A stretch of 64,000 nt of DNA from Candidatus Freyarchaeum deiterrae (GCA_037305845.1 CP147778.1:1184001-1248000); one strand, 5' to 3'. Shown: positions 43,916 to 56,099, counted from the first letter of the stretch. A program made the numbers and translations. Notes: generated by a model not told the origin, from the letters alone.

Positions 43916-44043
43916 GGGCCTGTAGTCTAGTGGATAGGGCGCCGGCCTCCGGATAAACATAATGTTTAGAAGAAAGCCGGATATTCAGGGGTTCGAAGAA
44001 GTACTCCAATCGAAGTAATTCGAAAGTCCCTTCAGGCCCGCCA
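43916..44043 (+). tRNA. tRNA-Arg(CCG) with two introns (37/38: 43953-43974; 59/60: 43998-44026)
   Basis: Acceptor stem GGGCCTG/CAGGCCC plus GCCA; anticodon stem CCGGC/GCCGG; BHB motifs at both junctions; 77 nt after splicing. Confidence 0.9.
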
Positions 44044-44144
44044 TTCAATTTCAAATTTAAAAAAATGGATAAAAGCATAATGGAATATCTTTTATTGTAT
44101 TGTATACACCGCAGTTTTGGTAAATAGAGTAAATCTGAAAGTGG

Positions 44145-46055
44145 TTGGTAGACTTTATGCTCACAGAAACGAGAGAAAAAATTATAGAGGCAATATACAG
44201 TGCCCTCGAATCACTGGGAATTGATAACGCAGTCTCAACAGAAGAGGTTAGTTTAAGTCTAGAACAGCCCCCAGATCCCAAACTAGGGAACCTTTCATCC
44301 TCGATAGCCTTTCGCGTTGCAAAGATCCTCAAGCGTAAACCGATAGAAACCGCCCAGCAGGTAGCAGAACAACTAAAAGTTCAGGAACTGCCCCTTGTCG
44401 AGAGAATAGAAGTTGCAAACCCGGGTTATATTAACTTTTACTTCGACGATTTAAAACTCGCAGAGATGACCATAAAAAAGGTTTTTACTGAGGGTCAGGC
44501 CTATGGGCAGATGAATCTGGGAAAGGGTGATAAAGTATTAGTTGAGCACACAGCGGTTAATCCAACTAAACCTTTACACATTGGTCACCTAAGGAACGCC
44601 GTCTTGGGTGATGTGGTAGCAAACCTGCATAGAAATGTTGGATGGAAAGTTGAGGTGGAGAATTTCATAGATGATTTGGGAAGACAGGTTGGAGTGCTAG
44701 TCTGGGCTTTTCTGAACAATATACACTTAGAGATGCCCAGGGAAAAGGATACCAAACTAGACTTTTGGTACGGATTAATATATGCCAGAGCTGCGCAGCT
44801 TCTTAAAGAAAAACCGGAATTGGAAAAAGATGTGGATGCAGTAATGAAGGAGATGGAAAAGGGGGGAAACGAAGTTGCGGATTTCAGCCGACATTTATCC
44901 GAGATGTGTGTTGAGTCAAATCTTGAGACAACAACCAGAGCAAATATCCCATACAACCTACTGGTTTGGGAAAGTGATATTGCGCGGTCTAAAATATGGG
45001 CGGAGACTCTCAAAAAACTGGAAAAATCTGAAAACTTCGTCTGGGAAACAGAGGGTGAGTATAAAGGTTGCTTTATAGCGAAATTCGGTAGATTGGAAGA
45101 GTTCCAGGACAAGAAAAATCCAGACAAGGTAATAATACGCTCTAACCAGGTACCCACCTATATAGCACACGACATAGCCTACCAGTTATGGAAATTTGGG
45201 AAGCTCAGCACTAAAATGAAATACCGTCCGTGGAACACTCAGTTCAACCAACAGGTATTATGGACTACATCTCCCACATTAAGCAACCCCAACGATGAAT
45301 TTGCTAATGCGAAAAAGGTAATAAACGTGATAGGATACGAGCAGGAATACTTACAGCAAGGTCTTAAAGCAATCATTAAACTTCTCGGTTATGATGAGGA
45401 AGAGAAAAACTCAATCCACCTCTCCTATAAACATGTCAAACTTGCAGAGGAAAGATTCAGCGGACGAGAGGGAAATTGGGTGGGATATCATGCAGATGCA
45501 GTAATCAATCAGACCTCCATCCGAGCATACACACAAATAAGCAAAAACCTGCCAGATATTTCCGAACTCGAAAAGAGAGAACTAGCGGATATAATAGCCA
45601 TAGGGGCAGTAAGATTCTGGCTTATAAAGTTCAGCACCGAGCAAACCATAGTATTCGATTTTGACAAAGTAACAAACTTCGACGGAGAAACCGGACCCTA
45701 CATACAATACGCAGGAGTCAGGGCCAGAAGTATACTAGAAAAGGCTGGTATAAAACCAAAACCAAAAATAAAACCAGAAAAACTAAGCGATGAGAGAGAA
45801 AAAGCCCTAATACAGCACATAGCACAGTTTCCCGAAATAATAAAAGCAGCAGCCGAGCAACTCAAACCCCACCTACTAGCAGAATACACTTACCAACTTG
45901 CCCTAAAATTCAGCAAATTCTACGAATCCCAACCCGTCCTCACAGCGGAAGACGAAGAAACAAAAAACGCCAGACTCACACTAGTCTACATAACAAAACA
46001 AACCATAGACAACGCACTAAGCATATTAGGAATACAAGTACCAGTAAAAATGTAG
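44145..46055 (+). CDS. argS: Arginine--tRNA ligase
   Basis: VEHTAVNPTKPLHIGHLRN, FSGREG and GPYIQYA motifs. Confidence 0.96.
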   Translation: MVDFMLTETREKIIEAIYSALESLGIDNAVSTEEVSLSLEQPPDPKLGNLSSSIAFRVAKILKRKPIETAQQVAEQLKVQELPLVERIEVANPGYINFYFDDLKLAEMTIKKVFTEGQAYGQMNLGKGDKVLVEHTAVNPTKPLHIGHLRNAVLGDVVANLHRNVGWKVEVENFIDDLGRQVGVLVWAFLNNIHLEMPREKDTKLDFWYGLIYARAAQLLKEKPELEKDVDAVMKEMEKGGNEVADFSRHLSEMCVESNLETTTRANIPYNLLVWESDIARSKIWAETLKKLEKSENFVWETEGEYKGCFIAKFGRLEEFQDKKNPDKVIIRSNQVPTYIAHDIAYQLWKFGKLSTKMKYRPWNTQFNQQVLWTTSPTLSNPNDEFANAKKVINVIGYEQEYLQQGLKAIIKLLGYDEEEKNSIHLSYKHVKLAEERFSGREGNWVGYHADAVINQTSIRAYTQISKNLPDISELEKRELADIIAIGAVRFWLIKFSTEQTIVFDFDKVTNFDGETGPYIQYAGVRARSILEKAGIKPKPKIKPEKLSDEREKALIQHIAQFPEIIKAAAEQLKPHLLAEYTYQLALKFSKFYESQPVLTAEDEETKNARLTLVYITKQTIDNALSILGIQVPVKM

Positions 46056-46065
46056 AAAAGGTGTT

Positions 46066-46205
46066 TGGCGGGCTCAGCGGGATTTGAATTCGTGAATCCA
46101 CCTCAAGGATGGATTTCCCACGATCACAGGCTCCGCAGGCATACGCACCAATCAAATATGGTTCTGCGCCCTTTCAGGAGCCTATCCTGACTAGGCCATG
46201 AGCCC
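46066..46205 (-). tRNA. tRNA-Arg(GCG) with three non-canonical introns (46173-46183, 46141-46163, 46089-46116)
   Basis: Removing the 11-, 23- and 28-nt introns gives GGGCTCATGGCCTAGTCAGGATAGGGCGCAGGCCTGCGGAGCCTGTGATCGTGGGTTCAAATCCCGCTGAGCCCGCCA, a 78-nt cloverleaf. Confidence 0.88.
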
Positions 46206-46404
46206 GCAAAGTGCTACTCGTATTAGGCATTTAACAGAATAAAAATTTTATGTAGTCGAACATTTTCATGATTAGTGGTGGATTGATGGCCCTTTTTCTT
46301 CTGAGATTATAATTTTTCCAAATAAGCTGGGTTTTTAAGAAGACTTGGGAAAATTACTGTGAACCTACTCAAATTATCGAAGACTATATTGTGGAAGAGA
46401 GATT

Positions 46405-46917
46405 ATGCAACGTAGTCAGCTCGTGGAAAAATTACTGGAAGATGTAGAGAGGAATAAGGGTAACTGGAATTCTAAGGGAGTAGCAATACTAGACCTGAAT
46501 AGTTCCGTTATTGGTTTTAAGGGTGATGTCCCAAAGGATTACATTGAATACTACCTCAAGTTTCCCATCTCGGAGATGCATGAGGGAGACACCATACACA
46601 ACCGGAACAGTTTCCTCATGAGAGTCTCGGAAAAAACGGCAGTGCTGGTAGTTCTTAGCGAAGAGCATTTTGCTAGACTAGCGGCAATAAATCTGCGGGG
46701 CAGAATATCAGCTCTCCATGACTTCTATCTGCTGGATTTGGATGGTGAAGATGGAGAGAGAATACTCAAAGGTAAAATCATCGAGGGAGAGACTTCAATT
46801 CTTGATGATGTGTTAGAAAAAATAAAATGCGGCGAAACAGCAGCAGATATAGCAATAAACGACTGGATGAATAACTTCATAAGCAAAATCAAAAACACCA
46901 CCCAAATTAGAATATAA
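46405..46917 (+). CDS. Roadblock/profilin-like fold protein, similar to 36791-37180
   Basis: GVAILDLNSSVI and LMRVSEKTAVLV parallel GLALFAIDGRLL and IMRVSERMVLAI. Confidence 0.55.
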   Translation: MQRSQLVEKLLEDVERNKGNWNSKGVAILDLNSSVIGFKGDVPKDYIEYYLKFPISEMHEGDTIHNRNSFLMRVSEKTAVLVVLSEEHFARLAAINLRGRISALHDFYLLDLDGEDGERILKGKIIEGETSILDDVLEKIKCGETAADIAINDWMNNFISKIKNTTQIRI

Positions 46918-47054
46918 AAGGCACCCCGTAAGCCATTAGATCATGTTAGTATAGCTTCTCGGTATTTTTTATTCTGGTTTAAACTCTGAATTTGGCTTCG
47001 AAAATATTTTTTATTAACTTAAATATAAGAATACAGGACTAGATTCAACGAGCC

Positions 47055-48167
47055 TTGAATTCGTTCTGGCTCGAAAACAGAGCCTTTTTAAAGGGTGGTT
47101 TTATGAAGTTAGGGTTGATTTCCCATAAGGCTTTCGAAGAGTTACATAATCCTGAGTTGACTAGACCATGGATGGAAGCATTTGAGAACCCGAATCGAAT
47201 AAAGCTTACGCGTGAATATTTGCATAATTCCGGTCTGCTGGATAACCCGAATTTGAAAAGTTTTGAATGCAAACCCGCTACTAGAGAGGATATCATACGT
47301 GTACATAATCCCTACCTTTTTGATGTAGTTAATGAACTATCCAGCCTAGGCAGTGGAGAAGTGGGTTCTTCAAGCGTCGTAGTTAAGGATACGTTTAGAG
47401 CTGCTTGCTTATCGGCTGGCGGCGCCATATCAACAGTTGATGAGGTTAACAAAGGCAGTGTAGAGACAGCCTTCGCTCTCATCCGCCCACCTGGACACCA
47501 CGCGGGAATAGGGCACTCGGAGGGAATGTGTTACTTCAACAACTGCGCCATAGCTGTAAGATGGTTGCAAGAGAAGAAAAAAGTGAAACGTGTTCTCATT
47601 CTAGACTTAGACGCACATGCCTGCGACGGAACCACCCAGATATTCTACACCGACCCCACGGTTTTTTGCTTATCTTTTCATGAATATGGTATGGAGGCAA
47701 TAGAGAGGGGATGGTTAGAGGAAGTAGGAAGTGGGGAAGGCGAGGGATACAACATTAATGTGCCACTACCATTTGGAACTTGGGGAAATGCTTATCGATG
47801 GGCTTTCGAGCAAATTTTTCCCGAGATACTCCGAGACTTCAAACCCGAAATGCTTGTAGTTTCCTTCGGCTTTGACACACACTACAGCGACCCTGTAGGA
47901 AACATGAATCTACAGGCTGAAGATTACGCTCAACTAACCCGGATAATTCTCCAGTTGGGAAAAGAGGTCTGCGGAGGAAAAACAGCCTTCATACTGGAAG
48001 GAGGATATAGCCTCTTAGCCCTACCCCTAAGCATCGGAGCAGTCATATCAACGATACTGGATACAGAAATAAAATATTTTGACAAAATCCCTGAACCGGA
48101 AAAAATCCCTAAAATAGTTAGAGACGTTACTGAGGAAATCCAAAACATAAGAAAGCAATACCTCTAA
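47055..48167 (+). CDS. HDAC-family deacetylase (class II-like)
   Basis: RPPGHHA, GMCYFNN, DLDAHACDGT, GFDTH and LEGGY motifs; probable start MKLG at about 47103. Confidence 0.92.
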   Translation: MNSFWLENRAFLKGGFMKLGLISHKAFEELHNPELTRPWMEAFENPNRIKLTREYLHNSGLLDNPNLKSFECKPATREDIIRVHNPYLFDVVNELSSLGSGEVGSSSVVVKDTFRAACLSAGGAISTVDEVNKGSVETAFALIRPPGHHAGIGHSEGMCYFNNCAIAVRWLQEKKKVKRVLILDLDAHACDGTTQIFYTDPTVFCLSFHEYGMEAIERGWLEEVGSGEGEGYNINVPLPFGTWGNAYRWAFEQIFPEILRDFKPEMLVVSFGFDTHYSDPVGNMNLQAEDYAQLTRIILQLGKEVCGGKTAFILEGGYSLLALPLSIGAVISTILDTEIKYFDKIPEPEKIPKIVRDVTEEIQNIRKQYL

Positions 48168-48487
48168 AAACGTTCTGTCGGTGCCCTCGCTTTATAGTAA
48201 GTTTTTGTTTGGCTAAGCTAAGTGCCCAATGTGTTAACAGAAATTCCCTTCCGGTCTAACTGAAGATTTTGTATTCTTTGTAAATAATGGAGCTGTAAGA
48301 AATATGGAAGTATACCTCTGAAATAAATTTAGCTGTGTGGACAATTTAGAGGTCGTTGCACTAATTAAACATGCACTCGGTGGGTGGGAGCGTTATAGTC
48401 TCATATGCAGGTGATTAAATGTTATACACATTCTAAACAGTTATGAAAATGACTATTGCCATAGAAAGGAGAGGAAGGCTGGGGGTT

Positions 48488-49171
48488 TTAAGGTTTGACA
48501 CTGCCCTGTTTGACTTGTAGCTTTTGGTCACGTATTCGCTGATAATGTGGTGTGATAAACAGAAAGTTAATTGAACCGGTAATACCAAAAAACATTAAGA
48601 GTGCTACCATCAGACCGGGGTCCTGGCGTATTATATAGAATCCTGAAAGCAACATGAGTAGTATTAGCACACAGTATATCGCGTCCAAGGTCATCATAGA
48701 GATGACTGTTCTTTTTCCCTCTTTTGTACTCCATATCAGAGATTTGAATCCTTTCACTGCTTCTCCCAGATTTTCGTAGCCGTTAACTCTGCTCAGAGGT
48801 GTAAAAAGCCTAATGGGTGTGAGCAGAAAACACACCGTGAGGGGCACCAGCAGAAGCAACTCCAACGTTAACATGAAGCCGGGATTCGTAGAAACTACTA
48901 ACCATCCTTCCCAAATCAGACCAAGAGTAGTGTAGTCTATTGAAAGCAACAAGCCAATAGTTAGAGGTCCTAGACTCAAGAGATGGGACCAGCCCGCGGG
49001 AAAAAGATAGAGCAAGCCTACGAGTAGTTTCACTCGGCTGAAAAAGAAAATATACATTAAGACAAAAAAACTGGTTACCGAAACTAGTAGAAGGACTATC
49101 AAAATTTTTTTAAATACACCACCCAGAGTTTTTGTTCTCATTTTTATCTCATCCAAACATTTATTTATCAT
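48488..49171 (-). CDS. Multi-pass membrane protein, candidate immunity protein 2
   Basis: GGAGG RBS; paralogous to 49847-50407 (LELLLLVPLT vs LDLLFLVPYT; TPLSRVNGYENLGE vs SPFSGIAGYEKFGD). Confidence 0.75.
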   Translation of the reverse strand: MINKCLDEIKMRTKTLGGVFKKILIVLLLVSVTSFFVLMYIFFFSRVKLLVGLLYLFPAGWSHLLSLGPLTIGLLLSIDYTTLGLIWEGWLVVSTNPGFMLTLELLLLVPLTVCFLLTPIRLFTPLSRVNGYENLGEAVKGFKSLIWSTKEGKRTVISMMTLDAIYCVLILLMLLSGFYIIRQDPGLMVALLMFFGITGSINFLFITPHYQRIRDQKLQVKQGSVKP

Positions 49172-49295
49172 TTAACCCTCCAAAAAAGGGAGGGAAGACC
49201 TAAACGCTCCCAATGAGGATTAGGCCTATCTGGAAAAGCGTTTTAGTTTTAAAGGGCGAATACTCATATTTCAACGTTCTTGAGAGTTACGTGGG

Positions 49296-49634
49296 TTAAG
49301 GCGGCGGCGAATTTGTAGGGAAGGGCCCTACCCAAACCCAAGTATCGAAGCCAATAGTGTTACCCCAGACAGTAACGAGATTAGTGTACTCATTCCACAA
49401 TTGACTATAATTATCAACGTTTACGGAATAAGGCCAAGGTAATTTATAGTACCAGTTATCTACGCGAATATAGTAGGGAGTGACATACGGTTGCGTATCA
49501 TAGTACGATGGGTAGGCATTCATCGGAGGAGTGAGTGGGTCGTGGAAATACTCAACTTCCCTGAAACCGAAATTTGGATCACGGGCCCAATTATAGGCTT
49601 CGGTAATAACAAAACTGTCCCAAGCAGCGGCCAT
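49296..49634 (-). CDS. Orphan divergent copy of the C-terminal domain of the 50606-51970 protein (silent cassette or pseudogene)
   Basis: AYNWARD, YFHDPLTPP, YTNLVTVWG, GFDTWVWVG and SPPP align with AYNEARD, YWHNPMLPP, YINLVTAFG, GFGNWVWLG and SPPP. Confidence 0.75.
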   Translation of the reverse strand: MAAAWDSFVITEAYNWARDPNFGFREVEYFHDPLTPPMNAYPSYYDTQPYVTPYYIRVDNWYYKLPWPYSVNVDNYSQLWNEYTNLVTVWGNTIGFDTWVWVGPFPTNSPPP

Positions 49635-49846
49635 AAAAGTATTAGCGACAACATAAACAAGATTCCATTAGATAACACCTTTTTGATAGTCATTCCAAAA
49701 GTTGTTGGGTATGAGTTCCCAGCGATGACGAGAATGTTAGTTTTTTATTGCTGTGAATGCCTTCATTGTAATAGGTTCCTTAGTGTAGAATCTGAAGCTT
49801 TAGGAACATCTCTAGCGCGCCAAGAGTATAATAACCCGTTTTCCGT

Positions 49847-50407
49847 CTATTGAATTGTTTTACGAATCTTTTGTAGTCGCATCCACGCAATAGTTAAACC
49901 CAATACACCGTCTATAAATAGTTCTAAAATAATTAGAGGGAAATTAAGTATTGTTTTGGAACTTGCAACAAAGGGAACCACCGCTACCGCGTAGAAGACT
50001 ATAATGATTAGAATCCCACTAATAATTAATGTTCTTTGCTTGCCTGTATTCTTAGTGATCATGAACCGAATTTTGTTCATCACATCACCGAATTTTTCAT
50101 AACCAGCGATTCCGCTAAAAGGTGAGATGAAAACATAGATGAGTCCTGTGACGAGAATTGCTAGCGTATAGGGAACTAGGAAAAGCAAATCTAAAATGAA
50201 CTTCGTGGTAAAATTCGTTACATATAAGGGTTGCTCAAAAAACACCACGCCGAGAAGATTAACCTTTATTATGGTTATGGGAAACACAAATACTGTGACA
50301 CTAAGCCCGTTAATCAGATACCACTGATAAACAAGAAAAGTAAGACTCACTGCCAAAAGTATGACAGTCAGTACTCCTATTATTTTAGCTAATACTTCCG
50401 TCTTCAT
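49847..50407 (-). CDS. Multi-pass membrane protein, candidate immunity protein 1
   Basis: GGAGGT RBS; about 4-5 TM segments; directly downstream of the secreted protein. Confidence 0.8.
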   Translation of the reverse strand: MKTEVLAKIIGVLTVILLAVSLTFLVYQWYLINGLSVTVFVFPITIIKVNLLGVVFFEQPLYVTNFTTKFILDLLFLVPYTLAILVTGLIYVFISPFSGIAGYEKFGDVMNKIRFMITKNTGKQRTLIISGILIIIVFYAVAVVPFVASSKTILNFPLIILELFIDGVLGLTIAWMRLQKIRKTIQ

Positions 50408-50605
50408 GGAATACCTCCAAAAAACTTTTGAAACAAATTAACATAAGAAAAATTTCGTTAATTCAAGTTATTAAATCACCTATCCATAATAGTTTTTTAC
50501 TATGAAAAAGGGGGAAATGAAAGGATTTAAGATTTCATTAATTGGTGCAATTCATTTTTAGGCTTTTGATGTACCTATGCAAAACTGCCATCAAGATACT
50601 TTGCA

Positions 50606-51970
50606 TTATGATGGGGGTGGTGAAGGTGCGGAACCCGTACCAAGCCATACCCAGTTACCGAAGCCATATAAACTACCAAAAGCGGTAACCAAATTTATGT
50701 AACTGTAATATATCGGCTCTCCAATTAGGAAATAGGCATCTCCAAGCGTCTTGGGCCAAAAAGCTCCGTCTACGCTGACGAGATAAGGCACTATTTTATT
50801 CCATTCATCATAGCAAGGTGGATTAGCTGTCTTTGGAGGGAGCATTGGGTTATGCCAATAGTCGCACTCCATCCAACCCCAGTCCCAGTCTCTAGCTTCA
50901 TTGTACGCCAGCACTTCCTTATACCTATCAAGTGTATACGCCTGTGCATAATGCCCAATAATACCCACTACAGCAAGTGCGAGCCCTACAGCACTAAGAA
51001 CAGTGGCTGCTGCTGATGTCACAGTACCAGCAACTGCCGCACCAACACCATATAAACCACCAGCGAAGCTAGCTATTGTACTTGCCCAGGTGAAAGCGTC
51101 CATGCTAGCGAGAGGTAGGTTTAGATATACATTTGCTAAATAAGCAGAAGCCTCCAATCCAGGTGTAAAAAATATGCACATGTACCAGTCGTATCCGTAG
51201 AGTACCACTGTAGGCCACCATCCAATGTAATAGGGCCACCAAAATACCCACACATAGCAAGGCCAGAGCAGTTGCGCCTGGTTGATGCGGAAGTAGGGGT
51301 CCATAATTACTGTTCCATCATCCGTAGTTACTGTTATTTTGGTTACGTTTTGTGTGGTTCCGTTTATTGTTAGTGAGTATTCTCTAGTCACAATGTAATA
51401 GGTTGTTCCATTAATGGTTTTAGTTTCGTTCAATTCGCTTGTTATTTTACCCTGCTGCACGATGTAGTTTACTTGTTGAAGTGATTGTATAGATTCATTC
51501 ACTATTTCGGGTGTTCGAAGCTCGTTTTCTCTGGAGAGCATTTGATCATACTGTGCGAAGCGTTCTGCGCAGTCCAGTCTTTCGGACAGGAACTGGAAGA
51601 ACAGCGCTCTGACTGATTCATTGTTTGGTGGTGATGTGAATGGTTTGAGTTCTCCGCTTTCTATTTTCTGCATCTGCCAATTCATGAAAGCATTGTTTAC
51701 AGCATCTTCAATGCTATGTTTCGCAACTTTGATTTGGTCCAGTGTTAATGCTTCTATGTCCAAGTTGGTAGAGAAATTCAGACTGTTGGAGATGTTTAGG
51801 TTTGAGCTTTTCGTTTGCTGTTCAAAATTTAGGGCATATAGTCCAAGAGGGGAGTAATTGTTATTCGCAAGTGCGCCGGCTCCAAACATCAGATAACCTG
51901 TTCCCAAGCTGATACTAAGCACTATGAAAACACTAGCCGCAAATATCCTTAACTTTGCTTTCATTCTCAT
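50606..51970 (-). CDS. Secreted hypothetical protein, candidate archaeocin/toxin precursor
   Basis: GGAGG RBS; basic and hydrophobic signal or anchor; after a DP dipeptide come a Trp/Tyr-rich segment, an Ala/Gly-rich hydrophobic hairpin and an aromatic C-terminal domain. Confidence 0.8.
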   Translation of the reverse strand: MRMKAKLRIFAASVFIVLSISLGTGYLMFGAGALANNNYSPLGLYALNFEQQTKSSNLNISNSLNFSTNLDIEALTLDQIKVAKHSIEDAVNNAFMNWQMQKIESGELKPFTSPPNNESVRALFFQFLSERLDCAERFAQYDQMLSRENELRTPEIVNESIQSLQQVNYIVQQGKITSELNETKTINGTTYYIVTREYSLTINGTTQNVTKITVTTDDGTVIMDPYFRINQAQLLWPCYVWVFWWPYYIGWWPTVVLYGYDWYMCIFFTPGLEASAYLANVYLNLPLASMDAFTWASTIASFAGGLYGVGAAVAGTVTSAAATVLSAVGLALAVVGIIGHYAQAYTLDRYKEVLAYNEARDWDWGWMECDYWHNPMLPPKTANPPCYDEWNKIVPYLVSVDGAFWPKTLGDAYFLIGEPIYYSYINLVTAFGSLYGFGNWVWLGTGSAPSPPPS

Positions 51971-52369
51971 CCTCCCAAATTTTTTAACATTTATTTTGGA
52001 AAAACTTGTATATATATATCGGAAATTCAGAAAGTATAACGGCGTTATTGAATTTAGTTTCTTGTTTCGGCGATTATTTTAATTTGGCAAAGGTCTTACA
52101 ATGTAAGTGAAAAGCTAAGATTTTCGTGCTGCTAGAAAAAGGTACGACTGCAAAATTTGTAAAAGAAAAAACATCAAATAGTACCATTTTTTCATTCTCT
52201 TTGGCACTCTGGTCACATATAGTCAGTATTGGAGCCGAAGAAAACCGCAAGAGTCAACTCAGTTCAACAAGTACACCGCAAATCATAAGCAAACCACCAA
52301 ACAAAAAATCACAAACAAAACGAGTATTATACTAGAACATTCTGGAAAGAAGGCTTAAAAGTTTAGAGA

Positions 52370-52759
52370 TCATGTGAGATTTTTAATCCTCTTTATGATT
52401 TTTTGAGTAACACGCCGCGAATTTTCCAACAACGTTTCAATCTCCATTTTCGAGGCATTTTCCGTATGAACACCCGCGGTCACTGTAACTACCCTATTAG
52501 TTTCCCTAGCTATACTATCCGCAGCCTCACGGGCCACAATATCGTCCTTATGGCTGAGTAGAGTAATCACGGAAGAAGTGGAAGATATAACACCCGGCTT
52601 ATCTCTGCTCGGACGGGGTTCCGCCACAGCCAAGGCACCCACATGCGATTTCTCTCCCCCACCAATTCCAACTACCAAATCATCTCCAATGAGAAAGAAA
52701 AACGCCCAGACACGACTTCTACCTTTTCCTTCCTCCTCATAAAAAACCCTAGACAACAT
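52370..52759 (-). CDS. LpdD-like protein (prenylated-FMN chaperone family)
   Basis: GDDLVV.IGGG..HVGA, SHKDD and VTAGVH motifs. Confidence 0.7.
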   Translation of the reverse strand: MLSRVFYEEEGKGRSRVWAFFFLIGDDLVVGIGGGEKSHVGALAVAEPRPSRDKPGVISSTSSVITLLSHKDDIVAREAADSIARETNRVVTVTAGVHTENASKMEIETLLENSRRVTQKIIKRIKNLT

Positions 52760-52786
52760 AACGTTACCTCTAAAAAATGTATTTTT

Positions 52787-53032
52787 TTAGCTTTCTTCTT
52801 CAACAAAGATACTCATTTCAGGGCAGTATAATTCGCATTGACGGCATGCCTTGCAGCGCTTAATATTAACCGGTATTGGGGTATAGTAACCTTGCTCGTT
52901 TGGTGTTTTGGATTTTTCCAGTACGTTCTGCGGACAAAATTTGATGCATAGCTCGCAACCTTTACAGAGCTTTGGGTCAATGTGGATTGCTTTTACTCTT
53001 TTTTTAGGCTCCTGATTTTCTTTTTCTTCCAA
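52787..53032 (-). CDS. 4Fe-4S dicluster ferredoxin (KorD/delta-subunit-like)
   Basis: CKGCELCIKFCP, N..GYY and CKACRQCELYCPE. Confidence 0.88.
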   Translation of the reverse strand: MEEKENQEPKKRVKAIHIDPKLCKGCELCIKFCPQNVLEKSKTPNEQGYYTPIPVNIKRCKACRQCELYCPEMSIFVEEES

Positions 53033-53375
53033 GTCTAATCGTCCCTTCCACGCTTATAGGCGAGGATTCATCCAATTTTTCTGTTATTTTCGAGTTTGTT
53101 CTGGTTTTCGGATTTTCCGTGACCTGAAGTTCTACTTTTAGTTTAGGAAATATTTCTTTGACTGACTCAAGAATTTCTGTGGTTGATTTTTCAGCTTCCG
53201 GCGTCTTGGTACTGGTGAATAGTACTTGATTCCAATTGGGAAACAGTGAGAGAACACCTACGAATTGGTTGTTTCTGATTAAAAAATATTCGCAGCAGTG
53301 TTGTCTTACCCTAAAGCCCTTTTCAGCCAGAAGACTTCTCAAATCTTGCAGTTTATTCGAAGTGACCACATACAT
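53004..53375 (-). CDS. Hypothetical protein
   Basis: 123-aa ORF overlapping the ferredoxin start; contains HCCEY. Confidence 0.6.
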   Translation of the reverse strand: MYVVTSNKLQDLRSLLAEKGFRVRQHCCEYFLIRNNQFVGVLSLFPNWNQVLFTSTKTPEAEKSTTEILESVKEIFPKLKVELQVTENPKTRTNSKITEKLDESSPISVEGTIRLGRKRKSGA

Positions 53376-53555
53376 GGTAGGGTTCCCTCAAATTTTAATA
53401 TTCTTTTAATATTACAGTTTAAAAGAAATGGTTGGTGGCGTATTAAGTTTTTGAAGAGTAATAGTAAGGTTCTCCATAAATACTTTAAAAAGATTAAAAA
53501 AATACAAATAATAGAGAATTAAAAACATTATGAACGCTAGAAGCTTTGGGGTTGC

Positions 53556-54332
53556 GTGGACATGATAAGCAACAAAACCAAAAAGACGTTAGAGGACATC
53601 GGGCTCACCAAGTACGAGATTGAGGTTTATTTAACGCTTGTGAATTCCGGCTCTCTTACCGCGATTGAATTGAGTAAAAAAAGTGGTGTGCCCTATTCTA
53701 GGATATACGAGGTAGCTGAAAGGCTTGAGAAGAAGGGTTGGGTGAGGTCGGATAGAGGAAGACCTAACAGGTACATGCCCAGACCTCCGCTGGAGGCGAT
53801 GAGGAATCTTAAGCTTCAAATGCAGAAGGAGTTAGAGGAAAACGAGGGGCAGATTGTTAACGAGCTTCAACCGCTTTATGAAAAAAGTGGAGAGTCTGAA
53901 CGACCGGACATCTGGATAATTCACGGAGAGGATAATCTCTTAGAAAAAGTCAGAGAGATGGTGGATAAAACAAAGAAGAACATATTAATCGCTTTTCCGA
54001 AAATAACGGATGAGAACTTGGATACTCTGCAACAGATTTTGGATAAACTGAGAGGCAAAGATGCAGAAATAAAATTCATGACCTCGAATGTTGGAGATCA
54101 GATTTTGAACAAATTGTTTAAATACTCTGGAGAGATAAGAACTCGAGACGTATTATATGGCGGCGGTATAATAGTAGATAACCGTGAGGCAATCATTATA
54201 TTTCCAGAAATCACTCATGAAGGGGAAATTATTTTCTCCTTGGGAATATGGTCGGATCATCTGGGACTCGCCGCATTAGCAGCCGATTACTTTGGGTACC
54301 TTTGGAATACATCCAAGGTGATTAAAAGATGA
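53556..54332 (+). CDS. TrmB-family transcriptional regulator
   Basis: GLTKYEIEVY, SGVPYSRIYEV and LEKKGWV; PLD-like effector domain (IIVDNRE). Confidence 0.92.
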   Translation: MDMISNKTKKTLEDIGLTKYEIEVYLTLVNSGSLTAIELSKKSGVPYSRIYEVAERLEKKGWVRSDRGRPNRYMPRPPLEAMRNLKLQMQKELEENEGQIVNELQPLYEKSGESERPDIWIIHGEDNLLEKVREMVDKTKKNILIAFPKITDENLDTLQQILDKLRGKDAEIKFMTSNVGDQILNKLFKYSGEIRTRDVLYGGGIIVDNREAIIIFPEITHEGEIIFSLGIWSDHLGLAALAADYFGYLWNTSKVIKR

Positions 54333-54352
54333 AAATTATGGAGGCTTACTGA

Positions 54353-55159
54353 TTGTTTAGAAAGCCGATAATAGGCCGCTTCCTATCCTATCACAGACAC
54401 GAAAATCCAAGCCCCGCAGTAATAGCCTTTAGAGAATTGATTTACCGAACCATAGGACACCCCTACCTACTCGACGTGATAAGGGCCGAGAGAGTCTTTA
54501 AGGCACTAGATCCTAAACCCAAGCAGAAAGTTCTGGATCTGGGATGCGGTTGGGGCGTCTGGAGTGTCGCGCTAATGGAGAATGGTTTAAAGATGGTTGC
54601 CGTGGACTTGCCCAACGAAGATTTCTTCGAGGCTCATAAATCCGCCCAAATAAATGATTTACCAATAGACTTCTTAATAGCGGATGGCCAAGCCCTTCCC
54701 TTTAGGGAAGATATCTTTGACGGTATTATAATGCTGGATGTTTTGGAACACATTCCCGATGACACTAAGGCGATGCAGGAGTCAAAAAGAGTGATAAAAG
54801 AAGGTGGAGCTGTAGTAGGAACGGTTCCCACCGTCGAGAGAGAGAAGATAATCATAAAGGAAAAATTAGTGAGGAACGAGCTGACAAGAGAGGATCTTAA
54901 CCTCGGACACCACAGAAGATACACTCTCAAGAGAATATTGAAGCTAATAAAGAGTGTGGGCATGAAAGCCGCTGCCTATGGTTACTACAATCAGCAGTTC
55001 AGCGAGGTTGCCGAGGAAATAAGAGAATTTCTCAGGCGTCACAAGATTCCTGATTACGTAGTATTTACCTTCCTCTACCCAATAGCCAAGATAGACGATT
55101 ACATTATAGCAGAGGGAGTAAAAGGCAGTGGATGCTATTTCAAGGCTGTTAAAACCTAG
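54353..55159 (+). CDS. Class I SAM-dependent methyltransferase
   Basis: VLDLGCGWG, LPF...FD, DVLEHIPDD and GHHRRY motifs. Confidence 0.88.
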   Translation: MFRKPIIGRFLSYHRHENPSPAVIAFRELIYRTIGHPYLLDVIRAERVFKALDPKPKQKVLDLGCGWGVWSVALMENGLKMVAVDLPNEDFFEAHKSAQINDLPIDFLIADGQALPFREDIFDGIIMLDVLEHIPDDTKAMQESKRVIKEGGAVVGTVPTVEREKIIIKEKLVRNELTREDLNLGHHRRYTLKRILKLIKSVGMKAAAYGYYNQQFSEVAEEIREFLRRHKIPDYVVFTFLYPIAKIDDYIIAEGVKGSGCYFKAVKT

Positions 55160-55228
55160 AAGTATGAAGAATACTTATCTAGGATTTTTGTATGAAGCCC
55201 CACGAGCATTCACTTTTTCTTAATTCTT

Positions 55229-55978
55229 CTAGCTGGAGACATGTTTTTTTATAGTATTTATGGAAGCCCGGTAGTTATTTATAAGTAGCTTAAGGTAGGC
55301 TTCGGTTTTCTTGGCGTTTTCAACTTCACCCGAAGTATCCAAATTCGTATTAACATGTTTTATAGCGCTTTCTAGATATTGAACAGATTCTTCAAGGTAT
55401 TGAACAGCTTTTCTAAAATTTTTCTCAAGAACCGCTACAAGAGAGTTGAAAAAGGAGATTTTAGCCTTCAGGATATTCACTCCTCCGCCTAATACTGAAA
55501 CCAGATCTTGATCCTTAGCTTCCGACACTTTTTTCAGTGCAGTCTCCAGTTCGGGCAGAATTGGTTTAATGTGCTCCAAAGCTTTCGAGAAAGCCTCCTT
55601 TATTTTTTGTGTACCGTGCACAGAAGCAGTATCTAAAATCATGTTTCCAAATTGAATCTTATTAAGAGAAATCTTGTCCACAAAACTAAACAGTGAATCG
55701 TTAAGTTCCATCATAAAAAGTTGGTTTGAAACTTCTATGATGCATCTCTGAGATTTGAAAAAAAGACGTATCGCTTCCATCAAGGGGGAATAGTAGTTAT
55801 TTGCGCTTCTTGTTTTATTTTCATAATTCTGTTCAAGTTCTTTTGAAAGAGAGATAATTTCTTTTGTCACCTCTACTCCCTTAACATAGTTGAAAGCATC
55901 ATCTCCATACAATTCCCGATAAGCATCCACAAGTGACTCATACTTCTTAAGCTTATTATAACTCAAAACAATCACCAT
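55229..55978 (-). CDS. Hypothetical all-helical (TPR-like) protein
   Basis: NFRKAVQYLEESVQYLESA is a TPR-like helix. Confidence 0.6.
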   Translation of the reverse strand: MVIVLSYNKLKKYESLVDAYRELYGDDAFNYVKGVEVTKEIISLSKELEQNYENKTRSANNYYSPLMEAIRLFFKSQRCIIEVSNQLFMMELNDSLFSFVDKISLNKIQFGNMILDTASVHGTQKIKEAFSKALEHIKPILPELETALKKVSEAKDQDLVSVLGGGVNILKAKISFFNSLVAVLEKNFRKAVQYLEESVQYLESAIKHVNTNLDTSGEVENAKKTEAYLKLLINNYRASINTIKKHVSS

Positions 55979-56099
55979 AATTTGAATTACATTAAACCGA
56001 TTCAGAAATGTTTTAATCGATTTGGAAAGATGACAGGGTCAATAAAACCTTTCGCCTCTAGAAGCTAAGAGAAGGAATATCTAATCAAGGTTCGGAACC

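Follow-up and report, generated by a model that had tools for sequence, protein, structure and literature searches.

A recombining two-gene module of Jordarchaeales that joins a hypervariable hydrophobic hairpin to polytopic membrane proteins

What is the function of four co-oriented genes, here called A, B1, A' and B2, that stand in this order between housekeeping genes of an Asgard archaeon? The array lies on the minus strand of a stretch of 64,000 nucleotides from Candidatus Freyarchaeum deiterrae (GCA_037305845.1 CP147778.1:1184001-1248000), called the window below, which is part of a closed genome of 3.58 Mb. A sequence-only reading had taken the array for a polymorphic toxin/immunity locus with an orphan C-terminal cassette in an Asgard-like host, and homolog names place the host in Candidatus Jordarchaeum, a member of the Asgard Jordarchaeia (Freyarchaeia by another name). 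Protein A and the B proteins represent two new protein families. Their genes are found side by side in nearly all loci, and the part of A that varies most between strains is a very hydrophobic hairpin, which is exchanged in one block with neighbouring B genes.

The ORF (open reading frame) listing recovers the A(full)-B1-A'-B2 layout that had been claimed, with all four ORFs on one strand. The features of the array and its flanks are:

50606..51970, minus strand: gene A, full-length A-family protein, 454 aa from the ATG at 51970 or 452 aa from the ATG at 51964
51863..51970, minus strand: A residues 1-36, basic N-terminus and hydrophobic stretch, putative signal peptide or signal anchor
51296..51763, minus strand: A residues 70-225, helical-plus-beta N-domain ending at D224-P225
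51167..51295, minus strand: A residues 226-268, Trp/Tyr/Phe-rich long beta-hairpin ending at LYGYD
50930..51166, minus strand: A residues 269-347, hypervariable region with the Ala/Gly-rich hydrophobic helical hairpin
50609..50929, minus strand: A residues 348-454, aromatic C-terminal domain
49847..50407, minus strand: gene B1, polytopic membrane protein of the B family, 186 aa, about five hydrophobic segments
49296..49667, minus strand: A', displaced remnant of the 3' end of an earlier class-2 A gene, with an ATG ORF at 49296-49634 (112 aa)
48488..49171, minus strand: gene B2, polytopic membrane protein of the B family, 227 aa, with the start used by orthologs at the internal MRTKTL, 49141
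47055-48167: histone-deacetylase-like (HDAC) gene, flanking the array on the B2 side
52370-52759: LpdD-chaperone-like gene, flanking the array on the A side

The exchange between strains, which had been proposed as a check on the locus, could be mapped by comparing loci L025 and L006. Their DNA is 98.4% identical over 1.66 kb, up to about codon 277 of A, and identity of 98.2% resumes about 95 nt upstream of B1. Between these flanks 628 nt in L025 are replaced by 2621 nt in L006, where the block specifies another hairpin and another C-terminal domain as well as a B protein of 209 aa and a truncated B. This truncated B is 81% identical to the intact B behind another A class in L037, so the arrays stack relics of earlier cassettes. 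At the protein level, identity between L025 and L006 falls from 97% in the N-domain to 36% in the hairpin and is 64% in the C-terminal domain, and the corresponding values are 86, 45 and 79% for L014/L023 and 86, 45 and 90% for L009/L037. The identity valley in these three strain pairs therefore makes the hairpin, and not the C-terminal domain as a whole, the hypervariable element. The earlier assignment of the variation to the C-terminal domain has to be corrected, since that domain is 64-90% conserved between near-identical strains and the hairpin 36-45%. The last about 40 residues of A are variable too, and the N-domain (residues 70-225) is 58-97% identical among orthologs. The DNA breakpoints of L025/L006 and of window/L011 are located at or just past the LYGYD block, which is the last conserved stretch before the recombination breakpoint, and the breakpoint position recurs in three independent strain pairs. 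The ratio of nonsynonymous to synonymous substitution rates (dN/dS) is raised in the C-terminal domain, at 0.37-0.79, and is 0.24 in the N-domain and 0.08 in the HDAC gene; purifying selection acts on the N-domain and on the C-terminal core (dN/dS 0.24).

The linkage of the two families was surveyed with hidden Markov models (HMMs) of A and B, run on ORFs from all six frames of every locus retrieved. With few exceptions, an A-family gene has one to four B-type genes with multiple transmembrane (TM) segments behind it on the same strand, at about 20 loci in unrelated neighbourhoods of at least seven genomes, so the expectation that A homologs always pair with a B-like gene holds nearly everywhere. 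The order A then B was confirmed at L006, L011, L013, L014, L015, L017, L018, L019, L022, L023, L025, L026/27 and L028, and is also found at L031, L037 and on further contigs from the genome searches. At L021, L029, L032 and L033 the B HMM is silent, and a co-oriented protein of 221-386 aa with four to nine hydrophobic segments still lies downstream; L020, from the sister family, has a 258-aa protein with a B-like loop downstream of A. The adjacency is retained over order-level divergence in at least ten genomic contexts. Tandem divergent B genes stand behind a single A at L014 and L022, a pattern that is known for polytopic immunity genes. Some A fragments stand without a B gene.

Other elements are found in or beside some of these arrays. 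In L026, from a related Freyarchaeota metagenome-assembled genome (MAG), a transposase of the IS66 family lies inside the A-B array, between two B genes (L026:4748-6145), and short A N-domain fragments that cover HMM positions 105-164 lie just upstream of it. The paralogous A-B-B-B array of L014 (L014:3252-4158, GCA_038884375) adjoins a toxin-antitoxin-type pair of a UPF0175/ribbon-helix-helix protein and a DUF3368 (PIN-like) protein, and lies also beside a trimethylamine methyltransferase (MttB) operon. The neighbours of the arrays are housekeeping genes that differ at each locus. ARAGORN, a program not designed for several non-canonical introns in one tRNA, found no tRNA at positions 44000-56000 of the window. 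Contigs of four DNA runs from two studies, some of the runs being possibly the source of the genome itself, were compared with the array of the window and gave the same array, with no variants or joints and no polymorphism inside the sampled populations. No RNA run was listed among the public runs that contain the array. A repeat search over the array found short chance repeats only and no obvious recombination sites.

The orphan pair A' and B2 records an older state of the locus. A' is 38% identical to A residues 348-453 (E 2e-18), and all four motif pairs that had been quoted in support of a divergent copy of the A C-terminus are aligned. Counterparts of the pair are found in the sister lineage L011, whose full-length class-2 A shares 66% identity with A' in its C-terminus and whose B, next behind this A, shares 67% with B2; B2 is also 66-67% identical to the last B before the HDAC gene in L006. 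Class-2 C-termini accompany B2-type genes in both the window and L011. The synonymous distances (dS) to L011 are 0.40 for A', 0.44 for B2 and 0.40 for the flanking HDAC gene, and because the first two equal the last, A' and B2 are regarded as vertically inherited remains of a class-2 A-B pair. The N-domain of the window's A has a dS of 1.1 to L011. Its protein identity is 77% to a more distant clade versus 62% to the sister lineage, while in flanking proteins the window is closest to L011 (90-94%) and further from L006 and L009 (76-85%). Positions 49623-51187 of the window, which hold the hairpin, the C-terminal domain and B1, have no counterpart in L011. On these grounds A and B1 look imported, having displaced the 3' end of an older gene.

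A' itself is a truncated relic, since no ribosome-binding site (Shine-Dalgarno sequence), signal peptide or hairpin was found in it and its ATG corresponds in the alignment to a Met inside full-length relatives (P0013). Its open frame and its homology extend 11 codons upstream of this ATG, to a TAA. A 48-aa remnant of the same A' lies between B1 and B2 in L025 and L006, and the paralogous locus L017 has the order A-B-A'-A''-B.

Protein A has the anatomy that was read from the sequence at the outset, namely a signal or anchor, sequons, a DP dipeptide, an aromatic segment, an Ala/Gly-rich segment and an aromatic C-terminus, as composition and alignment confirm. The ATG at 51964 is the likelier start compared with that at 51970, because a GGGAGG lies 6 nt 5' of it and because it agrees with the MKGKLK of the orthologs and with a 452-aa database entry; a TATA-like box, ATATATATATA, is found about 50 nt upstream of the A start. 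The N-terminal segment, which ends with GAGALA before NNNY and is kept in orthologs, would be a Sec-type signal peptide or a signal anchor, with a cleavage site placed from the A-x-A pattern only. A has nine N-x-S/T sequons, all in residues 38-208, compared with 4.0 +/- 1.8 in shuffled sequences (P=0.007). Six of the nine are inside residues 70-225, and N181, N187 and N203 occupy invariant or nearly invariant alignment columns. This enrichment and the conserved positions argue that the N-domain faces the outside. D224-P225 is nearly invariant across the alignment. Residues 226-268 contain 42% Trp, Tyr and Phe, whereas residues 269-347 have 35% Ala and Gly, 3% charged residues and a Kyte-Doolittle maximum over 19 residues of 2.4. 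The C-terminal domain, with 21% aromatics, carries the motifs YN-x-A-x-DP-x-(W/F)G and GF-x-x-WVW...PPP and the near-invariant H373, and is homologous throughout the family members, the giant paralog described below included.

The AlphaFold2 (AF2) model of A, built with a 35-sequence alignment, has a mean confidence (pLDDT) of 73 and a predicted TM-score (pTM) of 0.69; an earlier model from 12 sequences was poor (pLDDT 51) and had no Foldseek match. The model predicts an N-terminal helix, then a helical segment and a beta-sheet at residues 77-216, with pLDDT of 73-95 over residues 70-225. Two strands, 226-244 and 248-268, follow with pLDDT of 89-93. The helices of the hydrophobic hairpin are predicted at 292-312 and 318-360, with low confidence at about 290-340 (pLDDT about 50), and the hairpin projects from the alpha/beta domain. 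The mixed C-terminal domain has pLDDT of 57-94 over residues 341-440. The DP dipeptide is in a beta-turn of a confidently folded domain and not at a linker position. A hairpin this hydrophobic in a Sec-exported protein is expected, from established translocon behaviour, to stay in the membrane of the producer, and that of A should do the same.

The B proteins are divergent paralogous membrane proteins, each with its own ribosome-binding site, in agreement with the sequence-only reading: they share a loop motif and carry GGAGG-type sites, a GGAGGT 5 nt upstream of B1 and a GGAGGG upstream of B2. By BLASTP, B1 and B2 match each other over a 34-aa loop only (E 2e-4), and it is through orthologs and paralogs that they are joined into one family, with a shared layout of four to five TM segments and the loop motif GYE-x-(F/L)G-(E/D)A-x-K...K-R. 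Kyte-Doolittle profiles give four to six hydrophobic segments in each. In L025 and L006, the B gene behind the same A class encodes a protein that is 65% identical to B1.

Both families are restricted to few lineages and have no recognised relatives. A profile search of 1.84 billion representative proteins found 46 relatives of A, of which the named ones are all from Jordarchaeia/Freyarchaeota. Eleven orthologs with 44-68% identity were found as well, the named ones from Jordarchaeia only. Among 301 Asgard genomes searched, the A family is present in eight, all Jordarchaeales: all six of the genus (own genome included), two of five from the sister family and none of the 290 other Asgard genomes. 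The statement that neither A nor B belongs to a recognised family stands for all sequence and fold libraries searched. Scans of Pfam, NCBIfam, PADLOC and PHROGs with A, B1, A' and B2 had no significant match, and the A and B profiles had none below E 0.06 among PDB sequences. With the 35-sequence model of A, Foldseek found no PDB match below E 0.15, a wide VIA-align search matched generic helical hairpins only (Z up to 7.4, over residues 279-352), TM-scores by query did not exceed 0.27 in the ESM Atlas shape search, and no match was found among BFVD viral structures. Protein-atlas feature searches with A and B2 gave scores of 0.83 or less and no families. As for S-layer, pilin, archaellin and cannulae families, neither A nor B matched any of them in Pfam, NCBIfam or PDB, a result with which a structural role is still compatible. 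A viral or mobile origin is not supported, because a scan of IMG/VR viral contigs gave no relatives.

The whole A unit, C-terminal domain included, is one conserved unit across the family, and it also forms the N-terminal head of OmpL47-repeat surface proteins of 915-1850 aa. The own genome has a second copy of A as the N-terminal about 440 residues of a protein of about 1850 aa, and the remainder of the giant A-headed proteins consists of OmpL47-type beta-barrel repeats (NF047446, E 2e-125). The 915-aa fusion of A to OmpL47 repeats occurs in other genomes (L028), with B downstream. The B complement of the own genome is B1 and B2 only, and its giant has no B. This giant lies outside the window, on the minus strand at about 116.2-123.15 kb of G000:C1 (L005:4217-11153), and has at least 20 OmpL47-type repeats, with neither a B gene nor a C-terminal anchor seen. 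It is split into a 1854-aa ORF and an overlapping 463-aa ORF that carries on the repeats, and the final 40 or so residues of the 1854-aa ORF seem to belong to another frame, which points to a frameshift or to a fault of the assembly.

In-frame TAG, TGA or TAA codons or splits are common among A copies in other Jordarchaeum genomes (G007:C63, G008:C23/C81/C149, G010:C99/C121 and L037:1824-1826), and the L037 copy has a TAA where relatives encode Gln. Most relatives come from MAGs, so some of these stops may be assembly errors, and the copies that carry them are probably either pseudogenes or MAG errors. Decoding of TAG as pyrrolysine was dropped as an explanation, since the Jordarchaeia paper reports selenocysteine for Jordarchaeia and limits pyrrolysine to Sifarchaeia.

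What could such a module do? The likeness in evolution to polymorphic toxin loci and to the VARTIG loci of Thermococcales, together with the mismatch in payload, favours A as a polymorphic, recombining effector or identity protein with a cognate membrane partner, which would serve contact-dependent antagonism or self/non-self discrimination between Jordarchaeum strains; this reading is about as likely as not. The module would be Jordarchaeales-specific, self-contained and composed of two genes. A would be exported through its Sec-type signal and would present an N-glycosylated ectodomain on the surface, with the very hydrophobic Ala/Gly-rich hairpin as its hold in the membrane and the aromatic C-terminal domain back outside. 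B, with four to five TM segments, would recognise the hairpin of A within the bilayer in an allele-specific way. Its role would be comparable to that of polytopic immunity proteins towards pore-forming colicins, of TsaI towards TspA or of IdsE towards IdsD. Hairpin and adjacent B gene or genes would be swapped between strains as one cassette that starts just past LYGYD, and older cassettes, such as A' with B2, would be pushed downstream and decay. In more specific terms, and tentatively, Jordarchaeales may possess an intramembrane self/non-self system in which a hypervariable glycoprotein hairpin is read by cognate polytopic partners and the cassettes are traded, a possibility that is rather to be doubted than expected.

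Lineages without B bear on this mechanism. A homologs that occur without B partners had been named as a reason to abandon the toxin/immunity reading, and such a case exists in one lineage, L009/L010, whose A has a charged hairpin. The intact A members without B that have enough downstream sequence to judge are two, L009 and the giant of L005; charged residues make up 12% and 19% of their hairpins, respectively, and 2% of that of the window's A. This pattern fits the idea that B may be needed only where the hairpin is truly hydrophobic. Mantel tests of B distance against the distances of the A regions are significant (r 0.44-0.60). A complex prediction of A residues 225-454 with B1, made with alignments, scored 0.00 while the partner's own fold was uncertain, and it weighs on neither side of the question of binding.

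Several observations weigh against an effector or identity function. In none of the libraries tried did the proteins match a signature of a toxin, nuclease, peptidase or pore-former, and all A alleles share one fold, while classical polymorphic toxin systems swap unrelated toxin domains. The location of the A unit at the N-terminus of giant repeat proteins gives it the look of a membrane base and not of a delivered warhead. No secretion or delivery machinery linked to the module was found among the neighbours, only the Sec-type N-terminal signal. L009/L010 has an intact 462-aa A followed only by a 39-aa 3' remnant of B2, and an intact A without B is found also in G007. The charged-hairpin pattern relies on two B-less cases, and some B-linked hairpins are themselves 11-14% charged. 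The order of B genes is shuffled between L014 and L023, so an adjacent B need not be cognate. With most pairs being saturated, the partial correlations with B distance over 11 pairs are weak once the N-domain is controlled for (r 0.10 for the hairpin and 0.33 for the C-terminal domain).

A structural explanation, possible although on the unlikely side, takes the module for a surface-anchor complex. A would be the part of surface glycoproteins or fibres that is embedded in the membrane as their base, B would help to assemble or stabilise the hairpin, and the OmpL47 giants would be the complete version. The variability would then come from diversifying selection that viruses or grazers exert on an exposed and dispensable surface protein, and the module would take no part in conflict or recognition between cells. 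The giants agree with it, since the A unit heads the 915-aa and about 1850-aa OmpL47-repeat proteins, B is still downstream of the 915-aa form and the giants have no C-terminal anchor, so that the A head must tether them. The conserved N-glycosylation sequons, a hydrophobic hairpin that would stay in the producer membrane and the lack of any toxin signature point in the same direction. Such an anchor is nevertheless difficult to reconcile with a variability that peaks in the membrane-buried hairpin and not in the exposed ectodomains, which is hard to attribute to external agents, and up to three or four divergent B genes per A with stacked B and A' relics fit an immunity-type accumulation better. 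B is moreover dispensable in L009 and for the own-genome giant.

Two further explanations are less probable. A diffusible pore-forming archaeocin, of which A or a fragment released at the DP dipeptide inserts its hairpin in competitors while B blocks the pore in the producer, is improbable, even though an Ala/Gly-rich hydrophobic hairpin beside a polytopic membrane protein is also found in pore-forming colicins, cassette exchange and orphan modules occur, and D224-P225 is nearly invariant. Colicins fold in the cytoplasm and are released by lysis, whereas a hairpin with a Kyte-Doolittle value of about 2.4 in a Sec-type exported protein should anchor in the producer. A diffusible bacteriocin of the membrane-active kind that the sequence-only reading had in view is therefore unlikely. 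No lysis or release gene and no dedicated exporter were found near the array, the AF2 position of the DP dipeptide does not favour release of a fragment, and the fold searches brought up nothing that resembles the colicin pore domain, although lack of a match is weak evidence. It is very improbable that the locus has no special biology at all and is a fast-evolving, dispensable, lineage-specific family shaped by duplication, gene conversion and decay, where A' and extra B genes are debris and adjacency is co-transcription of unrelated membrane proteins. The many members with in-frame stops or in fragments, an A' without start signals, the deletion of the array in L009 and the IS66 transposase inside one array would suit neutral decay, but this process would hardly keep A and B adjacent across order-level divergence, maintain purifying selection on the N-domain and C-terminal core, place the breakpoint at the same position in three independent pairs, or leave B1 and B2 intact with ribosome-binding sites.

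Cell-cell interaction in Asgard archaea is hardly known, yet contact and partner choice are central to ideas on eukaryogenesis. The locus is a compact and testable candidate, with two small genes, clear alleles, breakpoints between 98%-identical strains and relic cassettes, and the B-less lineages with charged hairpins are natural "knock-outs". If the intramembrane system proved true, it would decide which cells adhere, fuse, exchange material or die on contact, and would be the first of its kind in the archaeal lineage closest to eukaryotes, made from two new folds. Even as a structural anchor only, the module would tell which part of the lineage's giant OmpL47-repeat surface proteins is their membrane base.

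Among known systems, pore-forming colicins and the toxin TspA of the type VII secretion system (T7SS) have a hydrophobic helical hairpin that is membrane-active or recognised, and their immunity proteins (Cai/Cbi and TsaI) have three to five TM segments in the bilayer; tandem arrays of immunity paralogs occur for TsaI. B1 and B2, with four to six hydrophobic segments, are adjacent to A and co-oriented with it, like the immunity proteins with three to four TM segments. A and B have no sequence similarity and no detected fold similarity to these proteins. The hairpin of A is placed on an alpha/beta domain (AF2, pLDDT about 50) and not in a 10-helix bundle as in colicins, and A has a Sec-type signal while colicins and TspA are released by lysis or by the T7SS. 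In Proteus mirabilis, IdsD and IdsE are encoded by adjacent genes for membrane proteins, with strain-variable regions in or near TM segments and an allele-specific binding that defines self. A and B resemble them as two adjacent membrane-protein genes with strain-variable regions in or beside TM segments. The Ids system is bacterial, depends on transfer by the type VI secretion system and has no homology to A or B, and orphan fragments and partner-gene arrays are not known among its features.

Polymorphic toxin systems (PTS), such as CdiA-CT/CdiI, Rhs and MafB (Zhang et al. 2012, PMC3482391), share with the module a conserved 5' part that switches sharply to a variable 3' part at a motif, which is LYGYD here and VENN or DPxGL there. 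They share also a partner gene directly downstream, which here seems to move with the variable part, orphan 3' fragments that were displaced downstream along with partner genes (A'-B2, L017, L025/L006 and the truncated B of L006), arrays of partner genes and exchange between lineages. In the module, the variable part is a membrane hairpin with one fold in all alleles, not a set of unrelated enzymatic toxin domains, the putative immunity protein is polytopic and of a single family, and in the long paralogs the repeats come after the A unit, so that the domain order of PTS is inverted. Neither a toxin that could be recognised nor a delivery module, whether of type V, VI or VII secretion or of another kind, was found here. 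From the analogy with CDI, Rhs and MafB drawn for toxin, immunity, orphan C-terminus and immunity, the layout, the cassette exchange and the orphans can be kept, and the toxin domain and the delivery module find no support.

The VARTIG loci of Thermococcales (Makarova et al. 2021, PMC8416519) begin with a multi-immunoglobulin (Ig) protein, arCOG07710, whose C-terminal Ig domain is hypervariable. The families are unrelated, and belong to Thermococcales there and to Asgard Jordarchaeales here; the variable part is a C-terminal Ig domain there and a transmembrane-type hairpin here. No Ig domain was found in A, and OmpL47/Ig-like repeats are present in the long paralogs only and are not the variable part. 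Both systems are archaeal and lineage-restricted, with a hypervariable module and strain-to-strain recombination, and in both a surface-protein gene comes first and is followed by variable sets of predicted membrane proteins that track its subfamilies. Both have a PTS-like organisation with no identifiable toxin and leave the same three functional hypotheses. In the module described here near-identical strains map the breakpoints to about 100 nt, which the VARTIG authors stated that they could not do (PMC8416519). The array extends recombining surface cassettes of the PTS and VARTIG type to Asgard archaea, and indicates an unusual specificity determinant, a membrane-embedded hairpin.

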